A stretch of 64,000 nucleotides of DNA from Biomphalaria pfeifferi (GCA_030265305.1 JASAOG010000079.1:365331-429330), one strand, 5' to 3'; positions 5,398-37,867 are shown, counted from the stretch's first letter. Translations and numbers: made by a program. Notes: generated by a model from the letters alone, not told the origin.

Positions 5398-5509
5398 TGG
5401 CAGGTTTTTGAATCAAAGTATGTGGCATTATTGGGTCTGTGTTGTCCTGTTTCGTTCACACATTTACAGGCGTCCCCCTGAACACACTGACCTTGATGAC
5501 AAAGACATG
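5398..5509 (-). CDS. mucin/VWF-like gene exon (Cys-rich module after the repeat domain)
   Basis: Strong acceptor ttttatttttacag and donor gtaagt, in phase with the PTS exon. Encodes (A)CLCHQGQCVQGDACKCVNETGQHRPNNATYFDSKTCQI. Confidence 0.65.
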
Positions 5510-5618
5510 CTGTAAAAATAAAACAATTGAACAAAGGTGGACAATTGAGCAAAGGTGGACAAGTGAATAAATGCAATTAGGGCATAACTGACTTTAAAGT
5601 AAAGATAAAAACACTGAC

Positions 5619-8270
5619 CTAGTTGACGTGAAATTGTCAAAGAGAGTGCGGCAGCGATAGGCGAGGTCGTAGTATATTGTGTCAGCTTTGTTATTGTTGA
5701 AGTTTCGTTGATATACTTTGCATTTGTAGTGCTTCCTGGCATTTCAAGCGAAGTATATTGTGCCTTTGTAGTCATTTCTTGGGAAAGAGTTGTTTCTTTA
5801 CTCAATTCTGTGATAGAATATTCTAGTGTTGTCTGAATAGTCTTTTCAGTGGTAGTTAATAGTTTCTGTGGTGTTGTTTCAATAGTCTTTTCAGTGGTAG
5901 TTAATACTCGCTGTGGTGTTGTTTTAGTAGTCTTTTCAGTGGTTGTAATTTCTTCCTCTGTTGTTTCTATGGTCTTAGCAGCGGTTGTAAATTCTTTTTC
6001 TGTTGTTTCTTTGGTCTTAGCAGTGGTTGCAAATTCTTCCTTTGTTGTTTCTTTCATCATAGCAGTGGTTGTAAATTCTTCCTTTGGTGTTTCTTTCATC
6101 ATAGCAGTGGTTGTAAGTTCTTCCTTTGGTGTTTCTTTCATCATAGCAGTGGTTGTAAGTTCTTCCTCTGTTGTTTCTATGGTCTTAGCAGTGGCTGTAA
6201 GTACTTCCTCTGTTGTTGTTTCTATGGTCTTAGCAGTGGTTGTAAGTTCTTCCTCTGTTGTTGTTTCTATGGTCTTAGCAGTGGTTGAGAGTTCTTCCTC
6301 TATTGTTGTTTCTTTGGTCGTAGCAGCGGTTGTAAGTTCTTCCTCTGTTGTTGTTTCTATAGTCTTATCAGTGGTTGTAAGTTCTTCCTTTGGTGTTTCT
6401 TTCATTATAGCAGTAGTTGTAAATTCTTCTTTTGTTGTTTCTATGGTCTTAGCAGTGGTTGTAAGTTCTTCCTCTGTTGTTGTTTCTATGGTCTTAGCAG
6501 TGGTTGTAAGTTCTTCCTCTATTGTTGTTTCTATGGCCTTAGCAGTGGTTGTAAGTTCTTCCTCTGTTGTTGTTTCTTTGGTCTTAGCAGCGGTTGTAAG
6601 TTCTTCCTCTGTTGTTGTTTCTAAGGTCTTAACAGTGGTTGTAAGTTCTTCCTCTGTTGTTGTTTCTATGGTCTTAGCAGTGGTTGTAAGTTCTTCCTCT
6701 GTTGTTGTTTCTATGGTCTTAACAGCGGTTGTAAGTTCTTCCTCTGTTGTTGTTTCTATGGTCTTAGCAGTGGTTGTAAGTTCTTCCTCTGTTGTTGTTT
6801 CTATGGTCTTAACAGTGGTTGTAAGTTCTTCCTCTGTTGTTGTTTCTATGGTCTTAGCAGTGGTTGTAAGTTCTTCCTCTGTTGTTGTTTCTTTGGTCTT
6901 AGCAGCGGTTGTAAGTTCTTCCTCTGTTGTTGTTTCTATGGTCTTAGCAGCGGTTGTAAGTTCTTCCTCTGTTGTTGTTTCTATGGTCTTAGCAGCGGTT
7001 GTAAGTTCTTCCTCTGTTGTTGTTTCTATGGTCTTAGCAGTGGTTGTAAGTTCTTCCTCTGTTGTTGTTTCTATGGTCTTAGCAGTGGTTGTAAGTTCTT
7101 CCTCTGTTGTTGTTTCTATGGTCTTAACAGCGGTTGTAAGTTCTTCCTCTGTTGTTGTTTCTATGGTCTTAGCAGTGGTTGTAAGTTCTTCCTCTGTTGT
7201 TGTTTCTATGGTCTTAACAGTGGTTGTAAGTTCTTCCTCTGTTGTTGTTTCTATGGTCTTAGCAGTGGTTGTAAGTTCTTCCTCTGTTGTTGTTTCTTTG
7301 GTCTTAGCAGCGGTTGTAAGTTCTTCCTCTGTTGTTGTTTCTATGGTCTTAGCAGCGGTTGTAAGTTCTTCCTCTGTTGTTGTTTCTATGGTCTTAGCAG
7401 CGGTTGTAAGTTCTTCCTCTGTTGTTGTTTCTATGGTCTTAGCAGTGGTTGTAAGTTCTTCCTCTGTTGTTGTTTCTTTGGTCGCAGAAGCGGTTGTAAG
7501 TTCTTCCTCTGTTGTTGTTTCTATGGTCTTAGCAGTGATTGTAATTTCTTCCTTTGTTGTTTCTTTCATCTTAGCAGTGGTTGTAAATTCTTCCTCTGTT
7601 GTTTCTATGGTCTTAGCAGTGGTTGTAAATTCTTCCTTTGTTGTTTCTATGGTCTTAGCAGTGGTTGTAAGTTCTTCCTCTGTTGTTTCTTTCATCAAAG
7701 CAGTGGTTGTAAATTCTTCCTTTCTTGTTTCTGTTGTTTCTATGGTCTTAGCAGTGGTTGTAAGTTCTTCCTTTGGTGTTTCTTTTGTCTTAGCAGTGGT
7801 TGTAAGTTCTTCCTCTGTTGTTTCTTTGGTCTTAGTAAAGGTTGTAATTTCTTCCTCTGTTGCTTTTTTTGTCTTATCAGTGGTTGTACTTACAGTAATT
7901 TCTGTAGTTATTTCTGGTACAATTGTTTCTGTAACTTTTTCAGAAATTGTAGAAATGTTTGGCACAAATGTTTCTGTAACTTTTTTAGAAACTGTTGTGA
8001 TTTCTGGCGCAAATGTTTCTGTAACGTCTTCAGAAACTGTTGTGTTTTCTGGCCCAAATGTTTCTGTAACTTTATCGGAAACTGTTTTGATTTCTGGTGG
8101 AAATGTTTCTGTAGCTTCTTCAGAAACTGTTGTGATTTCTGGCGCAAATGTTTCTGTTACTTCTTCAAAAACTGTTGTGATTTCTGGCGCAAATGTTTCT
8201 GTAACTGCTTCAGAAACTGTTGTGATTTCTGGTGCAAATGTTTCTGTAACTTTTTCATGAACTGTAGTAT
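5619..8270 (-). CDS. mucin/VWF-like gene exon: Thr/Glu-rich tandem-repeat (PTS-like) domain
   Basis: Acceptor ttattttatcaactgcag (2-nt start, in phase with the previous exon) and donor gtcagt. 884 codons open in one frame. Made of ~14-aa VTETFAPEITTVSE repeats then ~45 copies of a 15-aa TTTEEELTTTAKTIE repeat (45-bp DNA period). Confidence 0.75.
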
Positions 8271-9087
8271 CTGCAGTTGATAAAATAATTTTGGACAAGC
8301 TTATGATGTGTTATTATTGCTTACCATCATGATAGTCATAGAAATACTAGGCCACATGTTGTGAATCATCCCAGTTTGTTTCCAAACGTTTTGATCACAT
8401 TGTATTCAACTAAGAAATTAACTTGGGGAATATATAAAATGGTTTCTATTTTTTAAACTGTGTTTCAAGTGTTCATTTAAATGACAGCAAATTTTTTTTG
8501 GTTAAATAATTCCTCTTATTAGCTGGCAAACTCTTCATGGGTGGGCGGACACGACTCTAACGATTTTCCCAGAAGTTTGACAGTTTATCTATATCTTAAA
8601 GGAAAAAAAAGAGGGTGGGGAATAGTTATTACAAGCAAACTAACCATTCTTACAAAAAGTCTTTAGCTTTATAAAAGGAGTAATAGCCTTTTTAAAGAAA
8701 TAATTTGTGACAAATTTTACTTGTTTTTATAGCACAACCACAATGAATCTGAATAGAAGAAATGTATTTAAAACTAAAGTGTTTTCTGAGTTAATTTTAC
8801 AATTCCTTTTATTTACATTACACAATTTTTTACTGTTTTCACCCGAGTCTTTCAAAAAAGAGACATGCTTTTTGTTCACAATCGGTCACATAAAATCTCA
8901 GTTGTTAATAAAATAGTCAGGTAAATTAATTATTTAATTATGATCATTAAAATTTATATGTCATAAATGAAAGTGTACATACTATATTTTGAGTATAAAA
9001 GGAATACTTTAATGTAACGTTCATGTAGTTGTGTAGGTGGGTCTCTGTATGCATATATACTTAATTCCTAAATATTTCTATAATTAC

Positions 9088-9260
9088 CCAGCTCTAAACA
9101 TTCATCTGAAGACTCATCTGATCCATCTTCACAATCTTGGACTTCATCACAAACGCTGCTGTTTGAAATGCATTTATGACTCTCAAGACATTCAAACTGA
9201 TCGATGTGACACTTGGTGCAGTTTTCACCAGTACATAGAAATACTCCTCCTTGGCAGACA
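9088..9260 (-). CDS. mucin/VWF-like gene exon (E module end + LDLa-like Cys/acidic module)
   Basis: Acceptor ttcttctag and donor gtaatt. Encodes (C)VCQGGVFLCTGENCTKCHIDQFECLESHKCISNSSVCDEVQDCEDGSDESSDECLEL, an LDL-receptor class A pattern (CxxxxFxCxxxxCIxxxxxCDxxxDCxDGSDE). Confidence 0.75.
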
Positions 9261-9479
9261 CTAGAAGAAATTGTGGGAAATAGTGGAACATCTTAAAATA
9301 ACAAGAGCTTTATATTGATATAAAATTGTGCAGTATTCCCACTTCACAGGAGCTATAAATAGACATGAACCTAGGAACACATGAGATTTTAACTTATAAA
9401 ACACTGAACTCCTCCCCCAGACTATATCTAGTATTAAACATATGAAACAAATTTCAATATTCCTTTTGACCGTAGCTGT

Positions 9480-9840
9480 AATAGTGTTATGGAGTGGGTT
9501 TGTGAGTTTCATAGGTAACGGAAGAAAGCATAGTGATAGGTTGTGAATGGTGCAAGATAAACGGCATTGTCGTCAGCGGTCTTAGACAGTACAGATGACT
9601 CCAGAAAGCCAGACTGAAATGACGTGTTAATGGAGTGGGTAAGACTTTGTTCAGAATACCATTTTATATTATTACTAAAGTCTACTAAACTTATTGCATT
9701 TCATCTCAAGTTTAACTTGTTAACATTGTATGAAAATTATATTTAGTATTGTTCACAAAGAAGTTATTCAAGTTATTTCAAGTTTTATAAATTAAGATAT
9801 AATATGCCCAGAGAGGTTTGAAAGTCATGATCATGTATAT
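9480..9840. repeat. Unclassified interspersed repeat, copy 1 (paired with 15380-15850)
   Basis: Shared segments ggcattgtcgtca..ggtctta.acag.. and attattactaaagt..ttgttcacaa.gaagttattcaagttatt...taaaatataata.gcc.agag.ggttt. Confidence 0.45.
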
Positions 9841-9954
9841 GTTCTCTAAAACCTTCTAAATAATGTTCTCGTTTATATTTCACTTTAATGCATTTATTAA
9901 AGACTAGATCTGAAGTACCAAAAAATAAATATAATACAAAATGGGATTTTTATT

Positions 9955-10140
9955 TTCGGGATGTTTGGGTGCCTCTGAGTTCACCCAGCTTTAATGGGTA
10001 CCTGACACTAGCTGGGGAAAAGTAAAGGCCATTGGTCGTTGTGCTGATCTCATGATACCCTCGTTAAATGTGGGACATAGGAACAGATGACCTTTACAAT
10101 ATCTGCCCTATAGATCGCAAGGTCTGAAAAGGGAACTATA
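9955..10140 (+). mobile_element. SINE family A, 5'-truncated copy
   Basis: Body motifs gggtacctgacactagctgggg..ggtcgttgtgctgatctcatgataccctcgttaa..atctgccctatagatcgcaaggtctgaaaag. Confidence 0.7.
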
Positions 10141-10273
10141 CTTTTTAAACTGTTTAGACATAAGTGCTTTGTTTACTGTACATGAAATAATTGTTACACT
10201 AGTGATTATGCATAAAACTGTATCAGAGTGATACAATGTGATATAGAATATAGATGTAGTAGATTGTATTTAC

Positions 10274-10365
10274 CAATTCATGCAGTCAACAATGTTCACA
10301 GAGTCAGCATCATACCATCGCCCGTTGTGATAGCATGGGCATTCATTTGGAGAGATACAGCTTGA
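10274..10365 (-). CDS. mucin/VWF-like gene exon (TIL end + E module)
   Basis: Acceptor ctaaagag and donor gtaaat. Encodes SSCISPNECPCYHNGRWYDADSVNIVDCMN. Phase-2 end plus T of the next exon gives Cys. Confidence 0.8.
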
Positions 10366-10979
10366 CTCTTTAGAAAAAAAAAAAAGAGAAAGAGATAAAG
10401 AGACGGAGTGAACTAGATAATTCAAAACATTAAATTCATCCTTTGACTAGCAATACTTTAAGTTTCATATTCGCATTTTGTCATAATATAAATCTAATGT
10501 TTCGTTTTCTTAGGTCTTTATTAAGGCTCTTACAAGATTTGTTTATTGTAAAACAAAAACAATCAAAAAAAAAAAAACAACAACAACAAAGAATGCTAAA
10601 TGAAGTTTTCTAAAAGACCTAGAAATATTAGTCATTACTAATAATTGTAAAAGTATTTAATTGACATATTGTCGAGCTTTTCCTTTTGCAAACATTTAAT
10701 ACATGATATAATGAACAGTGAACAAAATTGAATTCCCTTTCGCGAATTGTTACTTTAATTTAATTAAAATAATTTCAAACAGTGCAAAGAAGATACATAT
10801 ATATATATATAAATATATATATATTGCTACAGTTGTAAAGAGCTACATAGTTAGACACTAACATGGGTACAAAGAATACACAGGAAAGAATCCTATTTGT
10901 TTTTTAACTGTGTGATATGTTTTTTAACATATACACAGTCTGATAAAATATTCACAAAGACACAAAGATAAATGCACAT

Positions 10980-11100
10980 TTCTTATTCCATAATGCTGGG
11001 ACAAAATGGTACAGGTGATCCTTCTTTCCTAGTGCCATTAGAGCATGGAATGATGGACCAGATTGCCTGAATCAACCAAGAAAACCAAAGTCAGAGGTTA
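10980..11100 (+). mobile_element. LINE family Y-related divergent 3' fragment
   Basis: Similar to the ..KGTFLVPYARTNLYKYSFFPSAIRAWN coding region (gcacatttcttattccataatgctgggacaaaatggtac..agcatggaatg). Confidence 0.4.
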
Positions 11101-11394
11101 TGATCGGACAAAACTGTAGGCTTGTAATCTAATTGTGAATTCCTTTATTGTCTTATTGTTTGCTGATGTGATGACTCTCATAAGCAAGCACTGCTAGATT
11201 AACAATTAGATACGTAATTATCTTCTGTCAAGAAGGATCGTCTGTAATTTATAACAAGATAAGATAAGAGTGACACTTTTAACATATTTGTTTTAGTTTT
11301 ATACAATTACTAGAAAAACTAACTAGGCTTAGAATAGAACAGCCCTTAATTTAAGCTGATGCCAATTTAACCACAGTGATACATACCTTATATA

Positions 11395-11560
11395 AAGTCT
11401 TGACATATAAGGTCTAGCAATGTAATTCTTACCATGTAAGGTCTGGTAATGGAGCTACTTGCTATGTTAGGTTTGGCAATGGACCTAATTACTATGTATG
11501 GTCTGGCTATGGAGCTACTTACAATGTAAGGTCTGGCAATGGAGCTACTTACCATGCAAA
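11395..11560. repeat. ~31-bp tandem repeat (aaggtctggcaatggagctacttaccatgt)n, ~5 copies, in the intron next to exon 11563-11702
   Basis: Directly visible. Confidence 0.85.
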
Positions 11561-11562
11561 AC

Positions 11563-11702
11563 CTGACCAGTAGGACAGAAGCATCCTTCTACTTGGACAT
11601 GAGTTAGACAATTCGCGGACGTATTCTTTGAAATATCATAGCAGGTCATGTGACAAGGTGCATCTTTGGCCTGGTACACCATTCCTCCTTCACACTGTAC
11701 AG
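11563..11702 (-). CDS. mucin/VWF-like gene exon (TIL domain)
   Basis: Acceptor cattttag and donor gttttg. Encodes (P)VQCEGGMVYQAKDAPCHMTCYDISKNTSANCLTHVQVEGCFCPTGQ. Confidence 0.85.
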
Positions 11703-12386: not shown

Positions 12387-12496
12387 GACACAGATGCTGA
12401 GATCTCCAATGACTTGGGAAGCCTAAATCTGAGCATGTTAAGGCAAAGTGAGCGATGGAGTCACACAGACATTCACAGTCTCCGCCCTTGTCACAC
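12387..12496 (-). CDS. mucin/VWF-like gene exon (C8 domain)
   Basis: Acceptor ttttaccag and donor gtaggt. Encodes CDKGGDCECLCDSIAHFALTCSDLGFPSHWRSQHLC. Confidence 0.85.
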
Positions 12497-13189: not shown

Positions 13190-13990
13190 TTATATAATAC
13201 AGATGTTACTTCAAAAAAGAAGATGCTTACGTCCTACGCATCATGCATTTAGTCATGCATATTAACCAATGACTTAAATTCTGCCAAGTCACTGGTTTTC
13301 CTGGCTAGCTCAGGCAACCCATACCATGCTCTAATAGCACTAGGGAAGAAGGAGTATTTGTACAAATTGTCCTAGCATATGGGACGAGGAATATGCCTTT
13401 ATTTTTGTGTCTTTCTGAGTATTTGATTAAATTTTGTTTTTGTATTTGAAGTTATGGTTCAGTGTTTTATGTATAATTGCTACTTTACTTTTGAGTCTTC
13501 TGCCCTGAAGGCTTTCTAAAATTTAGTGATTTTACTAAGGGTGTTACTCTAGTCAAATGTGAATATTCATTTGTTATGAATCTCACTGCTCTATTTTGTG
13601 TATTTTCCAGTTTCTTAATGTTTTCTTGAGTTGAGGGGTCCCAAACGGAGGATGCATATTCTATTATTGGCCTAACCAAGGTTAAATGACATTGTAGTTT
13701 TATGTTCTTATTTGATTTATAGAAATTTCTTTTAATAAATCCTAATGCTTTGTTTCATTTTTTTTTTATAGTTTCATCAATATGTGGATTCCATGACAGT
13801 TTTTCATTTATTATAACACCTGGGTATTGTGCGTTTTATAGTCTGTGTTACTGGTTTGCCATGGATAAGATAAGTGGAATTAATTTGTTTTGAATGTAAT
13901 TACCCGCTAGAAAACGATTTATTTGTAGAACAAGTGGTTGTGTGTTTTAAAAAAATGATCGGACAAAACTGTAGGCTTGTAATCCAATTG
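13190..13990 (-). mobile_element. LINE family Y 5'-truncated copy (minus)
   Basis: Reverse complement of the conserved 3' UTR at 13200-13265. Minus ORF 13485-13679 encodes MVRPIIEYASSVWDPSTQENIKKLENTQNRAVRFITNEYSHLTRVTP. Confidence 0.75.
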
Positions 13991-15030: not shown

Positions 15031-15170
15031 GTGCAGGCGTTCTCCTCACAGTCACTGACAAATCTTTTGATGTTAGACTCTGGCATCATTTGTCTACATC
15101 CCTGGAACATCTCGGAGGTCGCGATGACACTACACAGTTCTTTGGCCCAAGCTGAGCGATGAGGATGTTT
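15031..15170 (-). CDS. mucin/VWF-like gene exon (C8 domain start)
   Basis: Acceptor ttttccag and donor gtgaga. Encodes KHPHRSAWAKELCSVIATSEMFQGCRQMMPESNIKRFVSDCEENAC. Its 2-nt end plus 1 nt of the next exon gives CEENACTCDKGGDCEC. Confidence 0.85.
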
Positions 15171-17589: not shown

Positions 17590-17795
17590 CTCACAAGACG
17601 GCGTGGTGATGTCATAGTCCGAGTCCGAGCAGATGGCGCCTTCTTCCTTCCAAGACATTCCAAATTCAATAGCATCACTGCCAAGACTGTGATCAGATTT
17701 CAGAAAGTCGTTTTTTGAGTCAAAGTCATAAGTCCCACACAGACCCTCCAGCTTATTGAGCCATTTATCTGAGACTTGAATTTTGGTTAACAGGG
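17590..17795 (-). CDS. mucin/VWF-like gene exon (VWD GLCG..SW region)
   Basis: Acceptor tttgtttctctag and donor gtattt. Encodes LLTKIQVSDKWLNKLEGLCGTYDFDSKNDFLKSDHSLGSDAIEFGMSWKEEGAICSDSDYDITTPSCE. Confidence 0.85.
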
Positions 17796-19472: not shown

Positions 19473-19704
19473 CTCCAGACCAGTACAACGCTATCTCCTG
19501 GAAACTGACCACTGTGTGAAGAGTAGACGAGAATATGTGGACATCTCCGAGTCTCAGAGAGTCATTTAAGGCCAGAACAGTGTTGCCTGTAATGATCCCC
19601 TCGATCCCTTTAATCAGCTGGACATGAGTGTCTCCAACATGGATATCAATCTTATGGGAACAAGCGATCCCTGAGGATCCACACGCCAGGTTTTTTATGC
19701 TGAC
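19473..19704 (-). CDS. mucin/VWF-like gene exon (VWD core)
   Basis: Acceptor tttgtag and donor gtaag. Encodes VSIKNLACGSSGIACSHKIDIHVGDTHVQLIKGIEGIITGNTVLALNDSLRLGDVHIFSSTLHTVVSFQEIALYWSG. Confidence 0.85.
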
Positions 19705-19985: not shown

Positions 19986-20101
19986 CTTCACTTCCGGTGT
20001 GCTCGATTTGATGAGTGTGTAAGAACAACGCCCCGGAAAACGGAACATACTTCCGTCAAACGTCACCACTGTCATTGATGTACCAGACAAATAACAGGAG
20101 G
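19986..20101 (-). CDS. mucin/VWF-like gene exon (VWD N-terminus)
   Basis: Acceptor ctcttttcctcag and donor gtttgc. Encodes SCYLSGTSMTVVTFDGSMFRFPGRCSYTLIKSSTPEVK. Confidence 0.8.
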
Positions 20102-22445: not shown

Positions 22446-22574
22446 TACCATGAAAGTCAATTCTTTTTATTTTCCGCCACACGCTATTGTCACACTTCCT
22501 GAAAGACAAACAGAATGTACACATGGATGTCATATTCAAAGATCTCTAAACCTAGTCAATTGAACTGTAACTTA

Positions 22575-22805: not shown

Positions 22806-23045
22806 TACCATAGGTTTCTAAAAAGCAGGTCCAACAAATAAAAAAATAAATATTTATCTGACAATGATAAACACAAAGTTAATAAGTTTAGTTTACTAAT
22901 CAACATTTATCAACACATCAACAGCGTAAGAATGTGTTCACGAAATGTGAGATGTGTATTGCAGTGTATTTAAGCCAACTTTGCGGACATGGCTTTCAAC
23001 TCTGTTGTGTTACTATATTTATAACACACCTAAAAACACTCACAC

Positions 23046-23138
23046 TATGTCAAACTGGATTGTTATCTCAGAGTTGTTCGGATACCAGATGTCATTATAG
23101 AAGCACGGGCAAGTGCCGATTCGGGTACACTGACCATC
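23046..23138 (-). CDS. mucin/VWF-like gene exon (TIL end CPC + E start)
   Basis: Acceptor ctatttcag and donor gtgtgagt. Encodes DGQCTRIGTCPCFYNDIWYPNNSEITIQFDI. At least one unresolved exon lies between here and 20101. Confidence 0.6.
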
Positions 23139-23418: not shown

Positions 23419-23620
23419 AAAAGTCTCAGCAAATCCATCCTGGCAAACGCAGTCCCGTATATCGTCTGCACAAGTCATTATAGTATTAAATTTGTCGGGA
23501 CACTTGTACCTGGCACACATATCGTTTTGACGTTTGATTTTTGTGTACGCCACTTGGTTTTTCGGGCAGACGATTTCAGCACACTTGTCTCGACAACTTA
23601 TTAAAGCATCATCGCATTGG
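23419..23620 (-). CDS. mucin/VWF-like gene exon (E module + TIL-like Cys-rich)
   Basis: Acceptor ttctacag and donor gtaagt. Encodes (C)QCDDALISCRDKCAEIVCPKNQVAYTKIKRQNDMCARYKCPDKFNTIMTCADDIRDCVCQDGFAETF. Confidence 0.8.
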
Positions 23621-24574: not shown

Positions 24575-25752
24575 AAGTAAAGATAATAGTGAACAAATAG
24601 ATGCTATCTTACTAGATTTTTCTAAGGCTTTTGACAAAGTTCACCACCATAGTTGGCTTAAAAAATTAAAATATTTCGGCATTAATGGTCCACTGCATCA
24701 GTGGATTAAAGATTTTCTGATAGAGAGAGAACAAACTGTAATAATAAATGGCTCTAAATCAACACCAATAACAGTAAACTCAGGTGTACCTCAAGGAACA
24801 GTCTTGGGTCCACTACTATTTTTAATTTACATAAATGATTTACCAAATTGCATTAGTTCAGGAACAAAAGTCAGATTATTTGCAGACGATTGCATAATAT
24901 ATAGAACAATAAAAACAAAACAAGACACAGATACTTTACAAAGAGAATTAGATGAATTACAGAAATGGGAATCAAATTGGAGCATGTCTTTCCACCCAGA
25001 AAAATGTCAGTTGTTAAGAGTAACAAAAAAACTAAAACAAATTAATTCCACTTATCTTATTCATGGCAAACCAGTAACACAGACTAAAAACGCAAAATAC
25101 CTAGGTGTTATAATAAATGAAAAACTGTCATGGAATCCACATATTGATGAAACTATAAAAAAATCAAACAAAGCATTAGGATTTATTAAAAGAAATTTCT
25201 ATAAATCAAATAAGAACATAAAACTAAAATGTTATTTAACCTTGGCTAGGCCAATAATAGAATATGCATCCACCGTGTGGGACCCCTCAACTCAAGAAAA
25301 CATTAAGAAACTGGAACAAACACAAAATAGAGTAGTGAGATTCATAACAAACGAATATTCACATTTGACTAGGGTAACACCTATAGTAAAATCACTAAAT
25401 TTAGAAAGCCTTCAGGACAGAAGACTCAAAAGTAAAGTAGCAATTATACATAAAACACTGAACCATAATCTTCAAATACAAAAACAAAATTTAATAAAAT
25501 ACTCTGAAAGACACAAAAATAAAGGCACATTCCTCGTCCCATATGCTAGGACAAATTTGTACAAATACTCCTTCTTCCCTAGTGCTATTAGAGCATGGAA
25601 TGGGTTGCCTGAGCTAGCCAGAAAAACCAGTGACTTGGCAGAATTTAAGTCATTGGTTAATATGCATGACTAAATGCATGACGCGTAGGACGTAATCATC
25701 TTTTTCTTTTGAAGTAATGTCTGTATTATATAAGATAAGATAAGATAAATTG
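24575..25752 (+). mobile_element. LINE family Y, 5'-truncated copy with open RT C-terminal ORF
   Basis: ORF 24804-25673 (LDFSKAFDKV.., FADDCIIY, ..YSFFPSAIRAWNGLPE). Conserved 3' UTR and (TAAGA)n-like tail. Confidence 0.85.
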
Positions 25753-25844: not shown

Positions 25845-26094
25845 CAACGTATGCAAAAATCTTTTTGGAAAGAACCTGGCTTGACATAGGCCTTAGACTG
25901 GACTTCAAAACATGGGCAATCTTTTCTTTTTACACAATGTCCTTCATGGGTCAGCAGATGACCATGTGGGCAAGAACATCCTGGTACAGTTTTATCCGTG
26001 AACATCCTGACAGACAGCTGGGGGTCGAGACAATGAGATAGCCAGACTGGGGTGTGGTCATTGTAATCTAGGTCACCTTGACACGTTTGCATTT
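25845..26094 (-). CDS. mucin/VWF-like gene exon (TIL end + E module)
   Basis: Acceptor tttctttgaaacag and donor gtaagt. Encodes ...GCSCPHGHLLTHEGHCVKRKDCPCFEVQSKAYVKPGSFQKDFCIR. Phase-2 end joins the next exon to give Cys. Upstream exons between 26.1 and 30.4 kb were not resolved. Confidence 0.8.
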
Positions 26095-26352: not shown

Positions 26353-26889
26353 TTTAGTCATGCATATTAATCAATGACCTAAACTCCGCATGAAATAATT
26401 GATCTAAATTAATTAGTCTAATTTACCCATTTTTTTAGTAGGTTTCTGTAGGGTACTCTAATCTATATGCTTAAGGGTAAGTTAACATATATGCTTTAAT
26501 AATGAATATAACAGTGACATAACATGACAAATACGACATGAATGTTATGTTCCAACCTGGAAGAAGGTCTGGTAGCGAGGTGTGTTTCTTCAAGTGTCCA
26601 ATTAGAAAGGAAAATGGTATTTGTAGCGAGTGGGAAAGTTTCAGAAGAGTTGACTGAACTACTGACCATTCCTGACTGACCAGTGCTACTCTGTCCAGGT
26701 TACTGATCGGAATATAAATGTTTTCTAAAATGTCACTCAAACCTGCGAACTAAAGATTAAAGGCAGACAGAAAACTGTCATTAAAATCTTTGATAAGATA
26801 AAATAACTAGAGAAATGAGAGACTAGAATAATCTAAACTTTAAAGTTGACTTCACAAACATTTTTTCCTGTTAATAAAAGAATACAAAT

Positions 26890-27639: not shown

Positions 27640-30316
27640 AGAACTTAGACTTAGAAATTTTATTAGAATGTGAGAAACCAGACATAATTGCAGGAAAAGA
27701 AACTTGGCTACATCCTGAAATTTATAATGCAGAAATTTTCAATAGTAATTATGAAATTTTTAGAAAAAATAGGGCTGATAATCATGGAGGAGTTCTTCTA
27801 GTAATAAAAAACACTCTTATAGCAGAAGAAATTACCTTACCTAACTCAAAAAATATAGAATCAACATTTTGTAAAATTAATACCACCTCAACATCCCTAA
27901 TAATAGGCAGCATTTACAGACCACCAAATTCTAGTTTAGAATATATGCAGGAACTATGTAATCAGATTACTACACTTAAAGAGACAAATACAAATGCAGT
28001 TTTTTGGATTATGGGTGATTTCAACCTACCTGATATAAATTGGAAAACACTAACCATAGATAAACACCAAAACCTTAAGGACATAAATGAACTTTTCATA
28101 GAAACTTAACACAACCTAAGTTTAGATCAAATCATTAAAAAGCCAACTAGATTAAACAACACATTAGATCTCTTCTTAACCAAAAGACCTGGATTAGTAG
28201 TTGATTATGATATTATCCCTGGTCTATCAGACCATGAGATCATAGAAATACACAGTCCCAATTCAAAACCCAAAAGAAAAATCTTACTCAGGAATAAATG
28301 TAACCTAACACAACTACACCAAGCTGCATTAAACTTTCAAGAAACATTCTTATTAGAAAAAGACATTAACCAACCAGTTGTTGACCTCTGGAATTTCATT
28401 AAAAACCATCTTAAAAGCATTATAGAAAATCATATACCAACTAAATACATATCAAACATAATAAATAAATGCTGGTTTAATAATAGACTAAAGAAGCTTT
28501 GTAAACAGAAGGAAAACCTATATAGAAAATTTAAAGAAACTAAGGCAGAAAGAGTTTACAAAAAGTATATAAAAATTAAACACTTAACCCAAAAAGTAAG
28601 CAGACAGCTGCAGAGTGAATACATAAACAATGTAATATCTAAAGATAACAACAAAAACCTATGGTCATACATTAAGTCTAAGAAAATGGAAACAACAGGC
28701 ATAGCGCCATTAAAAGATGAACATAACAGAGTACATAATGATAATGAAACTAAAGCAAACATTCTAAACAAATACTTTGCATCAGCATTCTCAGCCCCAG
28801 GAGACAAAGACATATTACTGAATTTGAACCAAGTAGACAACATGGAAGATATAGTAGTACAAGAAAATGGAATTCAAAAACTATTAGCCAACACCAAACC
28901 AAATAAAGCATCTGGACCTGATGGTATTCCAGCTAGATTACTCAAAGAACTAAGCAATGAGCTAGCGCCAGTGTTCAAAATACTCTTTCAGGCTTCACTT
29001 AACCAGGGCAGAGTACCAAAGGACTGGAAAGAAGCTAATGTCACATTTAAAAAAGGAGAAAGATCTGACCCAGGAAACTACAGACCAGTATCACTTACCA
29101 GCATCACATGTAAAATCCTAGAACACATAACATGTTGCAACATCATAAACCACTTAGACAAACAAAATGTCCTCACACCATACCAACATGGCTTTAGGAA
29201 ATATAGATCATGTGAAACACAACTAATAGGATTAATTGATGATTTTTCTAAAGGTTTTGATAATAGTGAACAAATAGATGCATCAGTGGATTAAAGATTT
29301 TCTGATAGGGAGAGAACAAACTGTAATAATAAATGGCTCTAAATCAACACCGATAACAGTAAACTCAGGTGTACCTAAAGGAACAGTCTTGGGTCCACTA
29401 CTATTTTTAATTTACATAAATGATTTACCAAATTGCATTAGTTCAGGAACAAAAGTCAGATTATTTGCAGACGATTGCATAATATATAGAACAATAAAAA
29501 CAAAACAAGACACAGATACTTTACAAAGAGAATTAGATGAATTACAGAAATGGGAATCTAATTGGAGCATGTCTTTCCACCCAGAAAAATGACAGTTGTT
29601 AAGAGTAACAAAAAAACTAAAACAAGTTAATTCCACTTAACTTATTCATGGCAAACCAGTAACACAGACTAAAAACGCAAAATACCTAGGTGTTATAATA
29701 AATGAAAAACTGTCATGGAATCCACATATTGATGAAACTATAAAAAAATCAAACAAAGTATTAGGTTTTATAAAAAGAAATTTCTATAAATCAAATATGA
29801 ACATAAAACTAAAATGTTATTTAACCATGGTTAGGCCAATAATAGAATATGCATCCACCGTGTGGGACCCCTCAACTCAAGAAAACATTAAGAAACTGGA
29901 ACAGACACAAAATAGAGCAGTGAGATTCATAACAAATGAATATTCACATTTGACTAGAGTAACACCTATAGTAAAATCACTAAATTTAGAAAGCCTTCAG
30001 GACAGAAGACTCAAAAGTAAAGTAGCAATTATACATAACACACTGAACCATAATCTTCAAATACAAAAACAAAATTTAATAAAATACTCTGAAAGACACA
30101 AAGATAAAGGCACATTCCTCGTCCCATGTGCTAGGACAAATTTGTAGAAATACTCCTTCTTCCCTAGTGCTATTAGAGCATTGAATGGGTTGCCTGAGCT
30201 AGCCAGGAAAACTAGTGACTTGGCAGAATTTAAGTCATTGGTTAATATGCATGACTAAATGCATGACGCTTAGGACGTAATCATCTTCTTTTTTGAAGTA
30301 ACGTCTTTATTATATA
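27640..30316 (+). mobile_element. APE-type non-LTR retrotransposon (LINE family Y), near full-length degenerate copy (EN + RT)
   Basis: EN motifs (GKETWL, NYEIFRKNR..GGVLLVIKN, IYRPPNS, GDFNLPDINW). RT motifs (DFSKGFD, FADD, VPKGTVLGPLLF). Stops and frameshifts present, plus a ~100-bp internal deletion near 29280 relative to the copy at 24575. 3' end conserved; tail ataagataagataag. Confidence 0.8.
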
Positions 30317-30434
30317 AGATAAGATAAGAACTGACGATACCAACGTTGATTCCACCAGAATGTGGTAAATAATTACGGAGAGAAAGAGCTAAACGACGAT
30401 GTAATCTTTAGTGTCTTTGAGACTTTATGCCTAC

Positions 30435-30602
30435 CTTCTGTTGTCGACCGACTGAGTCGTCAATACTTCTAAATCCAGATCGACCACAAGAGTCCGTAGA
30501 ATAAGCTCCTATATACTTGTCATCAGATTCTGCATCAATCCCAGAGGGCAATAACCTGTCATCGTGAATTTGTCTGTTCATGTTTCCGCACAGACCCCGG
30601 AG
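30435..30602 (-). CDS. mucin/VWF-like gene exon (VWD GLCGN motif)
   Basis: Acceptor tttttttccag and donor gtaggc. Encodes LRGLCGNMNRQIHDDRLLPSGIDAESDDKYIGAYSTDSCGRSGFRSIDDSVGRQQK. Confidence 0.8.
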
Positions 30603-32087: not shown

Positions 32088-32232
32088 TCTTATCTTATAT
32101 AATACAGACGTTACTTCAAAAAAAAAAAAAAGAAGATGATTACGTCCTACGTCATGCATATTAGCCAATGACTTAAATTCTGCCAAGTCACTGGTCTTCC
32201 TGGCTAGCTCAGGCAACCCCATTCCATGCTGT
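32088..32232 (-). mobile_element. LINE family Y 3'-terminal fragment (minus)
   Basis: Reverse complement of the 3' UTR plus tail atcttatcttatat. Confidence 0.6.
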
Positions 32233-32337
32233 AACATCTAACACATCAAACACCTTACCTAGTTGTACAGTTTGTAGACCACTATAACATCAAACACCAT
32301 TAGCATAAAACTGCAAATATAAATGAGTACATCTTAC

Positions 32338-32649
32338 CGAGCCTGCTTCATAGAATGACTCCCAGGTCGCGACCACTAAGTAGTTCAGATTAAACAGAAG
32401 AATTCGAAACTCAAAAGCGTCTATTGCGATACTGGATGACGTGGGGGTCCGAATATAAACAAACTCGTTCGTATAAGGAAGCCGGACGCTGCTATTGCTC
32501 TTAAGGTCCAGCACCTTATAAAAGCTGGAGTTTTGGAAGATGACCACAAAGTGGACTTTGTCCCCCTTGAGCTCAACTCCTAGAGGTGTTAGAGTAGAAG
32601 GAGTCAGAGGGGACTTCTGAGAAATCATGTTTATCTGTAAATCATTTTT
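32338..32649 (-). CDS. mucin/VWF-like gene exon (VWD core)
   Basis: Acceptor ttccccag and donor gtaaga. 104 codons, phase 0 to phase 0. Encodes KNDLQINMISQ...FEFRILLFNLNYLVVATWESFYEAGS. Confidence 0.8.
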
Positions 32650-32699
32650 CTGGGGAAGTAAACAGAACAGATTGATATCAACCAAATCAAAATAAATCA

Positions 32700-32790
32700 A
32701 CATCTATCAATTTATCAATCAATTTATCTATCTATCTATCTCTCTGTCTGCCAGTCTGTCTGTCTGTCTGGCTAGCTAGTTATCTATCTG
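32700..32790. repeat. Compound microsatellite (ATCT)n/(GTCT)n
   Basis: Directly visible. Confidence 0.9.
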
Positions 32791-32910
32791 TTATAACATA
32801 TAGTTATTTATTCTAAGGTACAATTAATTGTTTTAAAGTCTGTATAATTCAATAATTATACGCTACCAAGATTGACACATTTTAAACTCTATTAAAAAGT
32901 TACAACTTAC

Positions 32911-33070
32911 TTGGTGGGCTACTAAAGTAAAAAGACAAGTTGTATCGTCTGAGGACAGAAAAAAATCCTGGCGGTCAAAGGTCGTCAAGATGCCAGGCCC
33001 GTACACAGAGCAGGAGGCATAACAGTTGTTGGATTTAACGCAGGTCCATAAACCACTTGCTGCACAAGTA
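32911..33070 (-). CDS. mucin/VWF-like gene exon (E module end / VWD N-terminus)
   Basis: Acceptor atcttcag and donor gtaagt. Encodes (C)TCAASGLWTCVKSNNCYASCSVYGPGILTTFDRQDFFLSSDDTTCLFTLVAHQ (TFDG-like VWD start). Confidence 0.8.
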
Positions 33071-34590
33071 CTGAAGATAATATAGAAACAAATTCATAAA
33101 AACAAATGATATGAAACAATATATTGCTAGTTTTCATTAAGTACAATGTAATTGTAGACCATAAGTTATTACTGAAGATAAAAGAGGTGAACATGGATTG
33201 AACTAAATCTAATGTACAGTTAGGCTACTATTGAAATAAACTCAACATCGTCATTGGATTCTATGACGTATCACATTTTTTGTCGTCATTACATGAATTG
33301 AAAACAACATTCATAAAGTTTTGCAAAAGTTATATCAGTTTGCTTGGACTGTCTGCGCCAGATTTTGTACACGTTATTTCTCCAACTTCTAAATCTCGGA
33401 TCAAGATGAAACTTTGCACAATTATTATTTGCCCGCAACAAAACGTTAATAAATCGAAAAATTCACCAAATATTTTATCAATTAGTAGTTATTAATTAAT
33501 TTTGTTTTTAATAATAATAATAATCTTTATTATCCGTATGGAAATTTGTCTTACAATTTGTGCATTACACTCATAATTTACATGTGACAAAGTTTATACC
33601 AGATTGTTCTTATTTAATGATTTCATTGCCAGGGGAACAAAAGAGTGTTTGTGTCTGTTTGTCTTTGCTATCGGTGTCTTGTATCTCTTTTGTGATGGTA
33701 AAATCACAAAATCCTGACGTAAAGGGTGATTCTTTATTTCGATGATCTTGTTAGCTTTTTTTATAGATGTTTGTCTCAAACAACTGCCCAAATGGGGTTT
33801 GTTTGTTTGTTTTTATATAGAATACATAGAAAACAAAACAAACCAGGCCAGAGAATAATTTTTTTAAAGAGAATTAGATGTTAAGAATTGAAAGATAGCC
33901 AGAGGAAAACAATTAAATGTTAATGTTAATAATATATCAAAGACTGTCAGTTTATTAATTCTAAGGAAAAGTTTGAATAGAATTTGTTAATTAACTTTTT
34001 CTTAATCACTATTTTCACAAATGATTTCTTTTCAACAAAACCACTTGACTGCTTGCAACGAGAGACAAAAATTAATTATAACTAATTAACAATAAAGTAT
34101 ATTGCAAATGACAATACTACCGTACCCTGGGGCAGAATTTTGTGGAGGATCCTAAACTTTTTTGATAGCTTTAATAAAAATTCACTTTTTAACCCTTTAA
34201 AGGCTGAGCTGTTTTAATTACAATTGTGTTGTTTAGAGGATAAACTACCACACGCGTTTTAAGGGTTAACACTTATTAAAACGTTGGTGAAAAAAAAAGC
34301 AAAAGCTGATAAATTGTGTACATTTTGAGACTTTAAATCTTTTAAATGGAGGCCTTCTTTTAGTGGAGACCAAGGGGCTGTAGCCTTCGCCTGCACTGCC
34401 TTAAATCCGGCCCTGTGTAACAGTTTCCATTAACTAAATATAAAGTTTGCCTGTTTTATAGCTTTGCAATCGCAGGGTTTGGATATTCAAATAATAATAG
34501 TTACATTTCTAAGAAAAAAAGCTAAAATTAAATGCCCGATAAATTTTTCAATCCACACAGTACAAAAAGTAGCTATCACACTGAACTCAC

Positions 34591-34840
34591 CAAACTTGGC
34601 ATGTATCCAGGAGATGGATTCGTTCGTTATGTTTGTAGTACCTGCCGTGTTGGGAACACGGGCACTCGGAAGGCGTAACGCAGCTCTTGTTATAGTACAG
34701 TAGACCGTCGGGACAATGACAGCCGGAAATACAGGTAGCTTGTTGCCCAAGACAACCTGGGGGGGATTGTGTTCGACCGCAAGCTGGACGCTGGGAAGGT
34801 CCGCAGTCACTGTAGACCATATTGGCAGGGCACTTCATAT
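34591..34840 (-). CDS. mucin/VWF-like gene exon (TIL domain + start of E module)
   Basis: Acceptor ttttcttacacctatag and donor gtgagt. Encodes MKCPANMVYSDCGPSQRPACGRTQSPPGCLGQQATCISGCHCPDGLLYYNKSCVTPSECPCSQHGRYYKHNERIHLLDTCQV. Phase-2 end completes a Cys codon with the next exon. Confidence 0.85.
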
Positions 34841-34970
34841 CTATAGGTGTAAGAAAACATTAGGTTAGAGAAGGGAAAACTGGACTCTGGGAAGGTCGGC
34901 AGTCACTGTAGACCATATTGGCAGAGCACTTCATATCTATAGGTGTAAGAACACATTAGGTTAGAGAAAG
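34786..34970. repeat. ~90-bp tandem duplication spanning the acceptor and 5' end of TIL exon 34591-34840
   Basis: 34786-34870 and 34876-34970 are ~90% identical. Both contain ctataggtgtaag and the antisense of atatgaagtgc(c/t)ctgccaatatggtctacagtgactgc. Confidence 0.85.
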
Positions 34971-35220
34971 GAAATATTCTACTAAATAATGACTAGCGAA
35001 CGGTTTGTATGTCAACAACTTATTGTTGGTTAGATAATGTAAAATGACACTATCTCTATCTGTTGTATATTAGTTACACTGAGAATAAAGAGGGAAAATG
35101 AATACTTTGATTTGTTATAAACAAAAGCGAAAAAAAAATTTGTTACATGATTTAATTTTGGTAATTTTTATATATAAAGCTAAAGAGGTTTAAAGGTGGA
35201 CCAAAAGAGGACTTTCTTAC

Positions 35221-35377
35221 CACACCCAGACTTCACTCTCCACGAAAGAACTATATTCTCCATCAGACAAGCGCTGACATAAGCAGCCATTGCTTGACAT
35301 CTCGTGACATTCTTTGTTGACACTGGCATTAAACAAAATGTGTCCATGCAGTATTCGATATAAGGTTTGACATCGAC
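35221..35377 (-). CDS. mucin/VWF-like gene exon (C8 domain)
   Basis: Acceptor attttag and donor gtaaga. Encodes VDVKPYIEYCMDTFCLMPVSTKNVTRCQAMAAYVSACLMENIVLSWRVKSGC. Ends phase 1; joins next exon as ...SGC-D-MKCP. Confidence 0.8.
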
Positions 35378-36264
35378 CTAAAATACATCATCAAATATCA
35401 TATCAAATTGAATCAGCGACAAAACTCTTAAAGTCATTAAATACCGACATTGCCTGAAAATTATATAACTATAATTTAAACTTCATTAAATTATGTGAAA
35501 GAGGTAACTCTGGACAAAAAAGTGTAATTTTTTCCATCAATGGAATGCATTTAACAGTGTATTTCATCGTGTGTACATGTCTGTTGTATGCTAAAGTTTT
35601 AATTTTACCGTATTACTTGTTTAAAGACATATGGAGTCTTGACTTTTTATAAATATTCATTTAATAAGTATTTTTTTTTATTAATGCAATCAAATATTTT
35701 AATGCCTATATTGTTCTTAATCTCTTTTACTTTTAAATATTGGTTTCATCCTTTATTTCTATTTCATATCGACTGGAATGTGGGAAGCGTGGTCGAGAGG
35801 TTAAGTGCTTGAACTTGGCTTGGCTACCTAGAAGGGGGCTCGAGATTCGACATCCGACTCGGGCAAAGTTGTGTTTACTGATCTCCTAAAGGAAAACCAA
35901 CTGCTGGTTACCCCCTACCCCCCCCCCCCCCCCCAGTGGTCCACAAATGAGATTGGACCAAAGCGCTCTGAGCATGCTATAAGCATGAAAGTAGCGCTAT
36001 ATAAAAGCTATAGTAATAATTATTATTTCGAAATATTTCTTTACATTCAAATTAGTATTACTCCCCTTTCATTCTATTGTCTGGTGTAGCTACTTCCCTT
36101 TCTTTCTATATCTTCTGAAAATTTTCATCACACATTCAGTCAAAAATTCTTAAAAAAAAAAATAAATAAACATCTACATTTAAAAACTAAGAAAGTTGAA
36201 CAGAATCTATTCATCCCTTTTATTTACGTGTACCAGATCTAGCTGTTCTACTACTAGCACTAGT

Positions 36265-36425
36265 TGGATGGCTGCCTGGTCGTGCTGTTTGCGCGCTGGA
36301 CTGTCGTTCAGATTTATCGATGGTCCAGGGTTCAAACCCTGCCCGCTCCCATCCCCCGTCGTCCTGCGGGAGGTTTGGACTAGGAAGTAATTATCTTCAA
36401 CTCTGAAGGAACATCCGAAACATGT
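36265..36425 (+). mobile_element. SINE family B copy
   Basis: Near-identical to 23745-23915 (ggatggctgcctggtcgtgctgtttgcgcgctggactgtcgttcagatttatcgatggtccagggttcaaaccctgcccgctcccatcccccgtcgtcctgcgggaggtttggactaggaagtaa..). Confidence 0.7.
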
Positions 36426-36858
36426 AAAACATTTTACTAACAAACATTTTAGTTTTCATCATTCTAGATCTGCATCAAATAAACACTCATCAAAAAGTCT
36501 TATTAGTAACGGTTTTATAATGCAATGCCTTTTTTTTTAAATTATAGAAAAGGTGATACTAATATGTACACTATATAGGCTTGAAAGTTTTGTGTATGCA
36601 GTGTGCATGGACATGTCCGTTGTCACAATTTACACATATAACTTGAAATAAAAACGTATTTCCTTTACAAAAAAAAATACAAATGTTATTTTTAGCAATT
36701 TGATTTCTAAACACGCTAGTTCCCCCCCCCCCCCCCTTTTCTTTTCGCTTAAGACAATTTCGAACCCCTCTCTTGGGGATACAAAAGGAAACACCTCCTC
36801 TAATGTATATTAATTATTGTGTTTGAAATAAAGGTATAAATCATATCTAGCAAACTAA

Positions 36859-36963
36859 CCTTGTCATGACATGGTCTGAAAATGTCTGTAGTTAACAAGT
36901 AACAAGCTGACCTGGCCATTTCCAGTTCATAGCTAGTCCTACATGGCCTTGATTTCTCACTCC
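36859..36963 (-). CDS. mucin/VWF-like gene exon (VWD end / C8 start)
   Basis: Acceptor tatatttttag and donor gttagt. Encodes WSEKSRPCRTSYELEMARSACYLLTTDIFRPCHDK, which joins in phase 0 to VDVKPYIEYCMDTFC (ChxxVdpxxYxxxCxxDxC pattern). Confidence 0.65.
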
Positions 36964-37093
36964 ACTAAAAATATACATTTTTGAGGAAATTATGATCACA
37001 TACATTGGTACACATTATATAGTGTTATTACACCTGTTATGTTATGGGTTAAAAACAAACCAATACATTTTTAATCCAATGAAATAGACTTAC

Positions 37094-37164
37094 ATTTGGC
37101 TGTACGTCAAGCTGGTGGCTGTAGACTTTCATCAGATTGTTGAGTTTCTGTTCAGTCTGTTTAT
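37094..37164 (-). CDS. candidate short exon (2-nt start, phase-0 end)
   Basis: Acceptor aaacag and strong donor gtaagt. Phases fit exactly between exons 37701-37867 and 36859-36963. Encodes KQTEQKLNNLMKVYSHQLDVQPN. Confidence 0.4.
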
Positions 37165-37700
37165 CTGTTTGAGACGTATAGCAAGCTAGGTATAATAAAG
37201 CTTTAAAAAAACAAAGCTTATATAGAGTAAAGAGAGCGCACCGTTAAATTGCTGTCACATCTCTTAATAATGCTAGTTATATTTCCTTTTTCTATATACA
37301 ACAAAATTAAGCAATTACCACTAATCCATTACATAATTGTTTTTTTTAAAATTGATTTATGTGTTGTTACCGACAATGAGTAACATTCAACATTTCAGAT
37401 CCGAGAATGGAAATTGGGAGAAAATGACCCAGACAGACAGACAGACAGACTTAGGGAGTTAATATAAGCTTTGTAAAAAAAAGATGCAATCTGACATACT
37501 GCTTAAGTTTTTATTTGTTTACATTTCATAAAATGTTCAGGGAAAAAATGCTAAGAATTTTTTTTCAACATTCAGTATTTAAAAATAAGTATTACTATTT
37601 CGTAGATATCAATTCAAATTATATATAATTATTCCTTTCCTCCAGGTACTCAGTGTTAACACACACAAAAACAAAACATCAACAACAAAAAGACTAATTT

Positions 37701-37867
37701 ACCTGGTCTTAATTTTTGACATGCTCCACCAATGTACTTGTCATGAATTAGCGGAGAGTCAAATCCAACAGTTATAAAGATCTCAATATTACTATCACGC
37801 CTGATGAACAAATCCAAGACGGGAAAAGCCAGAACTATACTGTCACTGAGCACATCAAAGTTGACGT
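37701..37867 (-). CDS. mucin/VWF-like gene exon (VWD domain part; 1-nt start, ends phase 1)
   Basis: Acceptor tcctttcgcag and donor gtaaat. Encodes ...NFDVLSDSIVLAFPVLDLFIRRDSNIEIFITVGFDSPLIHDKYIGGACQKLRPG. Exactly one exon must intervene before the next confident exon for phases to fit. Confidence 0.55.

Follow-up and report, generated by a model that had tools for sequence, protein, structure and literature searches.

Structure of the gene and support for the model

The window analyzed here, 64,000 nt of Biomphalaria pfeifferi DNA (GCA_030265305.1 JASAOG010000079.1:365331-429330, to which all positions below refer), carries a gene of 29 exons on its minus strand, from 61541 down to 5392. 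The spliced exons sum to 7,016 nt, that is, 2,338 codons without a single in-frame stop, and their translation is 100% identical, exon 1 included, to residues 1-2338 of KAK0054212.1, a GenBank protein of 2,505 aa named "pedal mucus protein 3, partial [Biomphalaria pfeifferi]". The gene is therefore not new, an identical model having already been deposited. We consider it very likely that the window holds the 5' 2,338 codons of the B. pfeifferi pedal mucus protein 3 gene, that the product belongs to a molluscan SCO-spondin-like group and that it has a role in a mucus gel or fiber.

The surrounding sequence is AT-rich eukaryotic DNA (G+C 32-44%) with many retroelement open reading frames (ORFs). 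When the Cys-rich open segments of the minus strand were roughly joined, they matched, at 56% identity, a hypothetical protein of Bulinus truncatus, and also a fish "mucin-5AC-like" protein. The gene was rebuilt from stop-free segments, AG acceptors and GT donors with tracking of the codon phase, with the help of tblastn searches using the Bulinus protein and of the orthologous B. truncatus locus (JAGDYQ010000002.1, 21054480-21087536; hereafter L001). KAK0054212.1 was reached by a library search with the same Bulinus protein, followed by a name look-up of the cluster. All 28 introns are canonical (AG/GT) and the codon phases are consistent across the 29 exons; at this base composition the chance of such an open frame is about 10^-46 even when only the 1,454 non-repeat codons are counted. 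Exons 2-7 and 9-25 gave significant, collinear and near full-length matches in L001 (35-69% identity) and exon 8 just a short, weak collinear one, while the introns did not align. As L001 stops short of the exon 27/28 and 28/29 junctions, these have no cross-species sequence support. Three pieces were found only through the Bulinus comparison or phase logic: exon 8 (71 nt), exon 15 and exon 19 (50 nt). The exons are those of a real, intact and very long gene, extending over more than 56 kb within the window.

A first-pass annotation, made from the sequence alone, had proposed a single multi-exon minus-strand gene at 5,398-37,867 with AG/GT-bounded exons joined in matching phase. The independent rebuild and the identity to KAK0054212.1 bore this out, and all 29 exons conform to that description. 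The proposed range holds 23 of them (exons 7-29); six more (exons 1-6) lie upstream, at 46.2, 47.3, 50.0, 51.0, 53.1 and 61.5 kb, and the gene starts about 24 kb above that range. The suspicion that the 5' end lay beyond a long terminal repeat (LTR) retrotransposon was correct, and the candidate exon noticed near 46.1 kb is exon 6. Exon 15 (26749..26557) and exon 19 (22498..22449) close the two gaps left in the initial model, at 26.1-30.4 kb and 20.1-23.0 kb, respectively. Codons split by introns were read correctly at 34591/33070 and 10274/9260 (TG+T, giving Cys) and at 15031/12496 (AC+G, within the peptide CEENACTCDKGGDCEC); that at 25845/23620 is indeed a split Cys codon, but it is completed as TG+C rather than TG+T. 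The low-end boundary also needed correction, since the last exon ends at 5392 and not at 5398. The TG left over at 5392 completes a Cys codon, and Cys is the next residue of KAK0054212.1. The 3' end had been left unresolved, and the gene does leave the window past exon 29: by tblastn the last 167 residues of KAK0054212.1 had no match anywhere in the window and the gene therefore runs off its low end. A search for further downstream exons in positions 1..5391 yielded only transposon-derived ORFs.

Domain organization of the protein

The protein comprises, in this order, a signal peptide, a Cys-rich head, the assemblies D1, D2, D' and D3, one LDLa module, a Thr/Glu-rich repeat, and Cys-rich and TSP1-like modules. 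D1 consists of a degenerate VWD, C8, TIL and E; D2 of VWD, a Cys-free linker, TIL and E; D' of TIL' and E'; and D3 of VWD, C8, TIL and E. On the spliced protein, Pfam detected VWD in two stretches, C8 twice, TIL three times (two above the cutoff, one partial) and Ldl_recept_a once, so that the four families expected by the first-pass annotation from the concatenated translation were all recovered.

Exon 1 (61450..61541; like all the exons below, on the minus strand) contains the ATG, encodes a signal-peptide-like stretch of 30 aa (MICFRIIHRIWLLGLYVILIGFMSIRPSLA) and ends at a gtaagg donor. It was located by a scan for an ATG, a hydrophobic stretch and a phase-2 donor, and the N-terminus of KAK0054212.1 is identical; the exon had no sequence match in Bulinus, though an analogous 30-aa exon is present there. 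The Cys-rich head starts in exon 2 (53044..53235; RCKTPTSH...GECVIY), which aligned by tblastx with L001 9954-10148 and shares its acceptor phase. Exon 3 (50959..51014; NITIEVCCPGYTGVNCEK) contains an EMI-like CCxGYxGxxC pattern, corresponds to L001 11013-11063 with both phases shared and matched no Pfam family; exon 4 (49919..50080), also Cys-rich (CCRDASRSWG), is 47% identical to L001 11508-11660. The head as a whole (aa 31-167) belongs to no Pfam family. The EMI domain, which SCO-spondin carries at its N-terminus, went undetected by Pfam both in the window protein (E<=5) and in the Lymnaea orthologue (E<=1); the head ends in CCPGYTGVNC, by eye the sole motif resembling EMI.

The first VWD is spread over exons 5 (47152..47354), which starts with TFLG where TFDG would be expected, 6 (46073..46214; collinear with L001 13380-13511) and 7 (37703..37867), the first exon of the initial model, which reads IGGACQKL in place of GLCG. 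Pfam gave no hit in this region (aa ~168-374), and an hhalign comparison with a VWD profile was uninformative (probability 1%). The region is 42% identical (E=7e-46) to the VWD1 of Lymnaea, and because this counterpart passes Pfam VWD at 43.8 bits, we read it as a degenerate VWD. Exon 8 (37094..37164) is a 71-nt linker that restores the phase; it came from the phase search and is part of KAK0054212.1. C8-1 is encoded by exons 9 (36860..36964; Bulinus match) and 10 (35221..35377), with a Pfam C8 score of 56 bits at aa 382-448, and TIL-1 together with the start of E1 by exon 11 (34591..34840; Pfam TIL 35.5 bits, aa 452-508), which ends in TG.

D2 begins in exon 12 (32911..33070; 65% identity to Bulinus), which carries the remainder of E1 and the VWD2 start (TFDR), and continues in exons 13 (32338..32649; VWD2 middle, 59% identity to Bulinus, E=5e-41) and 14 (30435..30602; VWD2 end, RGLCGNMN), with a Pfam VWD score of 37.7 bits across the three exons. 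No C8 was found by Pfam in D2. Its place is occupied by a Cys-free linker of 64 residues, encoded by the Bulinus-guided exon 15 (26557..26749) and assigned to no Pfam family. The same Cys-free linker occurs in Bulinus and in the Lymnaea orthologue (P0014), which implies that the loss of C8-2 is old and tolerated. Exon 16 (25845..26094) encodes a partial TIL-2 (20.5 bits, below the 24.5 cutoff) and the start of E2 and ends in TG; exon 17 (23419..23620) encodes the remainder of E2 and TIL', a module with a very weak match, barely detectable by Pfam. Thus, of the three successive D-assemblies previously described, the VWD, C8 and TIL modules stand, but not all of the assemblies are complete, VWD1 being missed by Pfam and D2 lacking C8.

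The end of TIL' and the start of E' (CPCFYNDIWY) lie in exon 18 (23044..23138), and the remainder of E' in exon 19 (22449..22498; KCDNSVWRKIKRIDFH), a piece of 50 nt that was found only by way of L001 25205-25240, with which it shares both phases, and that is contained in KAK0054212.1. Two other candidates for E' were discarded in favor of 22498..22449, the form conserved in Bulinus: a longer version, 22543..22449, is not conserved and has a poor acceptor, and 22857..22809 is not conserved either. When exons 18 and 19 are aligned with L001 24691-24783 and 25205-25240, two Cys of the Bulinus E' (VRC...PDC) are both Phe in B. pfeifferi (IQF...IDF), a double replacement suggesting that one disulfide pair was lost as a unit.

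VWD3 is encoded by exons 20 (19986..20101; TFDG), 21 (19473..19704; Bulinus match) and 22 (17590..17795; EGLCGTYD and FGMSW), with a Pfam VWD score of 91.7 bits across them. Exon 20 ends at two in-phase GT donors 6 nt apart, at 19986-19992 (GAA/gtgaag and GTGAAG/gtttgc), whose products differ by Val-Lys. The donor at 19992 had been our first choice; the distal one, 19986, is used by Bulinus and by the GenBank model, and this was the sole change needed to match KAK0054212.1. NAGNAG-like alternative splicing at this pair is possible. C8-3 follows in exons 23 (15031..15170) and 24 (12387..12496; CDKGGDCECLC, Pfam C8 47 bits, 69% identity to Bulinus), and TIL-3 in exon 25 (11553..11702; Pfam TIL 28.5 bits, Bulinus match). 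Exon 26 (10274..10367), which ends in TG, contains the end of TIL-3 and the start of E3. The remainder of E3 and the LDLa module share exon 27 (9088..9260); LDLa lies at aa 1374-1412, 12 residues past E3, and was recognized by Pfam (Ldl_recept_a, 36.4 bits) and by a match to PDB entry 1ldl.

A search of the PDB sequences retrieved FCGBP, VWF, MUC2, MUC5AC and MUC5B at E = 1e-108 to 1e-77. The VWD3-C8-3 segment scored best against the D3 of MUC2 (124 bits) and of VWF (93 bits), above their D1 and D2. Since the third assembly is closest to D3, the D1-D2-D'D3 reading is sound.

The tandem repeat and the modules that follow it

Exon 28 (5619..8270) is a single exon of 2,652 nt, exactly the 884 codons first assigned to it, that encodes a Thr/Glu-rich, mucin-like tandem repeat and fits both neighbors in phase. 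It is built of 15-aa units, with about 54 copies of 45-nt repeats in total. Tandem Repeats Finder resolved a 45-nt period with 45.7 copies at 5872-7888 and a second, different unit with 8.1 copies at 7902-8265. As in gel-forming mucins, the central tandem-repeat domain is contained in one large exon; the composition (Thr 37.6%, Glu 22.5%, Lys 8.8%, Ser 2.1%, Pro 1.9%) is atypical.

Exon 29 (5392..5509) encodes a Cys-rich, TIL/E-like piece and ends in TG/gtaagt; both this further Cys-rich exon and the LDLa module had been anticipated. After the repeat KAK0054212.1 has 206 residues, 39 of them from exon 29 and 167 coded outside the window. This part contains two WSxWS motifs and a weak, sub-threshold TSP_1 hit (18.1 bits). 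Pfam found neither VWD nor VWC in the 206 residues of this model, itself 3'-partial, and no VWA domain in its 2,505 aa.

In the Lymnaea orthologue the LDLa modules run straight into a Pro/Thr/Ser-rich region within one ORF. As a region of this kind follows LDLa there too, with an unrelated sequence, these freshwater snails seem to have in common a mucin-like insert at this place, one that evolves fast.

Relationship to SCO-spondin-like proteins and to mucins

Five relatives align with the B. pfeifferi protein from the N-terminal head onward, here under the names given by their sources. The proteins of Lymnaea (CAL1533122.1) and Mya arenaria (XP_052794204.1) are unnamed, that of Argopecten (XP_069118748.1) is called "SCO-spondin-like" and that of Potamilus (KAK3603587.1) has the UniRef name "SCO-spondin"; listed last is a protein of the starfish Patiria miniata called "mucin-2-like". 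The closest full-length-type homologues are thus SCO-spondin or SCO-spondin-like proteins, as far as source-assigned names go. Three VWD, three C8 and three or four LDLa were found in the two bivalves scanned, Argopecten and Potamilus, and three VWD, two C8 and four LDLa, followed by the Pro/Thr/Ser-rich region, in the Lymnaea orthologue. LDLa numbers among the relatives range from 2 to 5: at least 2 in Candidula, 3 in a protein from a Logan assembly, 4 in Lymnaea, 3-4 in the bivalves and 5 in Patella.

The name of KAK0054212.1 derives from P-vulgata_3 of the limpet Patella vulgata, a protein with three vWFD, two C8, two TIL and five LDLrA domains (PMC7333891). P-vulgata_3 was described as SCO-spondin-like, resembling the first third of SCO-spondin; it was detected in pedal mucus, and in situ hybridization located its expression in the pedal sole (Kang et al. 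2020, PMC7333891). By described domain content, the two snail proteins agree in their three vWFD, two C8, TIL modules and LDLrA after D3, and the succession of three VWD-containing assemblies and, directly thereafter, LDLa is found in the B. pfeifferi protein. They differ in that P-vulgata_3 has five LDLrA and no reported mucin-like repeat or TSP1, whereas the Biomphalaria protein has one LDLa, a repeat of 884 residues and TSP1-like modules. The nearest comparison, that with KAK0054212.1, concerns the same gene: the shared part is identical and the GenBank protein, 3'-partial as it is, adds 167 residues with TSP1-like and Cys-rich character.

With the SCO-spondin-like proteins of Argopecten, Potamilus and Lymnaea the B. 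pfeifferi protein shares the Cys-rich head with its CCxG[WY]xGxxC motif, the three VWD assemblies and an LDLa at about residue 1,370-1,420. SCO-spondin itself has many thrombospondin type-1 repeats, alternating with TIL/SCOR modules, and a CTCK at its C-terminus; the B. pfeifferi protein has TSP1-like repeats downstream, in the part coded beyond the window. Compared with the bivalve proteins, its VWD1 is degenerate, C8-2 has given way to the Cys-free linker and only one LDLa is left. The long repeat after LDLa is shared with Lymnaea in kind, not in sequence. The layout, with LDLa after D3 and TSP1-like modules after the repeat, together with the named relatives, led us to place the protein in the SCO-spondin-like group.

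The alternative that survives best, although we regard it as unlikely, is the placement to which the first-pass annotation had inclined, namely a canonical gel-forming mucin (MUC2/5AC type) or an orthologue of VWF or otogelin. A gel-forming mucin in the sense of Lang et al. 2007 would have D1-D2-D'D3 at the N-terminus, a Pro/Thr/Ser-rich (PTS) domain and D4, VWC and CTCK at the C-terminus. The protein shares with mucins, VWF and FCGBP the VWD-C8-TIL-E modules in the order D1-D2-D'D3, and with mucins a long Thr-rich central repeat thereafter; its best solved relatives include MUC2, MUC5AC, MUC5B and VWF, and mucin names are borne by a Physella fragment ("mucin-6-like") as well as by the Patiria relative. 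However, an LDLa module stands between D3 and the repeat, where the relatives have two to five, and the modules past the repeat are of the WSxWS, TSP1-like kind rather than D4 (VWD4) or VWC. Furthermore, the CGLC motif is absent, D2 has no C8, TIL-3 lacks an extra Cys insert, no VWA of the VWF type was found by Pfam, and a run of 12-13 D-assemblies as in FCGBP is missing. Most of the named relatives that align from the head are called SCO-spondin or SCO-spondin-like. Hence the proposed layout of D1-D2-D'D3 plus a Thr-rich repeat was retained, but its filing under gel-forming mucins, VWF or otogelin was not; judged from the domains, orthology with MUC2, VWF or otogelin is unlikely and an SCO-spondin-like protein of the P-vulgata_3 type fits better.

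A second alternative, which we hold to be very improbable, is that gene prediction has joined two adjacent genes, one for a D-domain/LDLa protein and the other for a Thr/Glu-repeat protein. The Bulinus annotation divides the locus into two models, and it is precisely the 27/28 and 28/29 junctions that lack cross-species sequence support, L001 ending before them. Nevertheless, the phases match at both junctions, the acceptors are good and the two introns measure only 817 and 109 nt. In Bulinus the split lies within D', between exons 16 and 17, and is clearly a prediction error, and in the Lymnaea model LDLa leads directly into the Pro/Thr/Ser-rich region within one ORF. Exon 28, whose ORF opens just 28 nt (9 codons) upstream of the acceptor at 8270, shows neither a start-codon context nor a separate signal peptide.

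That the locus is a decaying pseudogene is hardly credible: its introns carry an intact LTR element, several LINE/RTE fragments, a 4-kb satellite and a decoy acceptor that arose by duplication, VWD1 is missed by Pfam, D2 has lost C8 and E' two Cys, but the transposon insertions are all intronic and leave the reading frame intact, there are no stops or frameshifts in 2,338 codons, the 28 introns are all canonical, exons and not introns are conserved with respect to Bulinus, Bulinus and Lymnaea have lost C8-2 as well, and the two E' Cys were replaced by Phe together, as expected of a disulfide pair dropped under continued constraint.

Possible function

Our preferred reading, that of an SCO-spondin-like protein of snail mucus, suggests the following sequence of events. 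The protein would be secreted, given its signal-peptide-like start. Its N-terminal D-assemblies, homologous to those of which VWF tubules and MUC2 filaments are built, may self-assemble in the secretory pathway through disulfides or contacts, by analogy with VWF, MUC2 and FCGBP, and the Thr-rich repeat, if densely O-glycosylated, would form an extended, hydrated and strongly acidic spacer. The product would then be a gel- or fiber-forming component of snail mucus, probably originating from the foot or the epidermis. A secreted, O-glycosylated gel- or fiber-forming mucus component is the most likely identity. Vertebrate SCO-spondin, for its part, forms Reissner's fiber in the CNS, which is a role other than one in mucus.

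Several points weigh against this interpretation. Motifs tied to multimerization of VWF and mucins are incomplete in the predicted protein. CGLC (CxxC) occurs nowhere in it, the corresponding sites reading RGLCG, EGLCG and GGACQ, in contrast to the fish mucin hit, whose D3 carries CGLCG. At the start of TIL-3, which reads VQCEGGMVYQAKDAPC, the extra Cys found in the "...ECEW..." insert of the fish mucin is lacking, a residue that corresponds to VWF C1142. As both CGLC and this Cys are missing, the formation of intermolecular disulfides is only a candidate step. The DCECLC of C8-3 does align with DCACFC of VWF, a triplet that contains C1099. The repeat is Thr/Glu-rich and, with Pro at 1.9% and Ser at 2.1%, no textbook PTS domain. 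The window does not reach the C-terminus, where any CTCK dimerization knot would be located, and the GenBank protein is likewise partial. The B. pfeifferi annotation took its product names from similarity searches only (PMC10075465). SCO-spondin-like peptides recovered from Biomphalaria rearing water (PMC12639052) were considered as fragments of this product; they are absent from the protein and belong to a different one.

A bolder evolutionary reading, which we put forward tentatively, is that in hygrophilid snails (freshwater pulmonates) an SCO-spondin-like adhesive protein was turned into a mucin by insertion of a repeat after the LDLa region, loss of C8-2, erosion of VWD1 and reduction of LDLa from about four to one. 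In such a conversion the inserted repeat would be fast-evolving and heavily O-glycosylated, Thr/Glu-rich in Biomphalaria and Pro/Thr/Ser-rich in Lymnaea. If this were true, the protein could be a main gel-forming polymer of planorbid foot or skin mucus, the surface that schistosome miracidia meet first.

Little of this is new as regards the gene itself, since its model is public and the pedal mucus of limpets has already furnished a description of the family. The analysis documents, in a schistosome vector snail, an SCO-spondin-like N-terminus fused to a mucin-type repeat, provides exact exon coordinates that can now be used in studies of Biomphalaria mucus proteins, and corrects the split and partly wrong B. 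truncatus models (Btru_028333 and its downstream neighbor).

Annotation of the Bulinus orthologue

The Bulinus orthologue is mis-annotated as two gene models, split inside D'. At its start, Btru_028333 has 40-odd residues read in a wrong frame, and the "pentapeptide-repeat" stretch of the Bulinus model has the look of translated intron sequence between the exons for VWD2 and the linker.

Repetitive elements and a duplicated splice site in the introns

Intron 6 harbors a full-length LTR retrotransposon (38495-45093) that is oriented like the gene. Its two LTRs of about 423 nt (38495-38917 and 44672-45093) are 100% identical, and it contains an intact gag-pol ORF of 1,692 aa (44406..39328, minus strand), in which reverse transcriptase (RT) and RNase H (aa 1319-1671) come after the integrase domains (aa 827-1177), an order known from Gmr1-like Ty3/gypsy elements. 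From these features the element looks like a very recent insertion. A minisatellite with a 37-nt period flanks it at 38189-38481 and 45358-45573, and since the array is found on both sides, the element appears to have been inserted into it.

About half of intron 1 (8.2 kb) is filled by a 4.1-kb satellite at 53588-57665, made up of some 165 copies of a 25-nt unit (AATGGCTTCTTTGTATAGTCACTAT).

Ahead of exon 11, a tandem duplication of about 96 nt (~34871-34966 versus 34775-34870, ~90% identity) has doubled the 3' splice site together with some 60 nt at the start of the exon. In the upstream copy the acceptor (ttcttacacctatag/ATATGAAG), at ~34936, is still identical. As its use would lead into a stop, this acceptor is a potential decoy splice site.

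Finally, near-identical intronic fragments of a non-LTR (RTE/LINE-like) RT family occur in both orientations, at 709-1344 (+), 3375-4685, 13252-13754 (-), 24804-25673 (+) and 28686-30147 (+), and two of them pass Pfam RVT_1.

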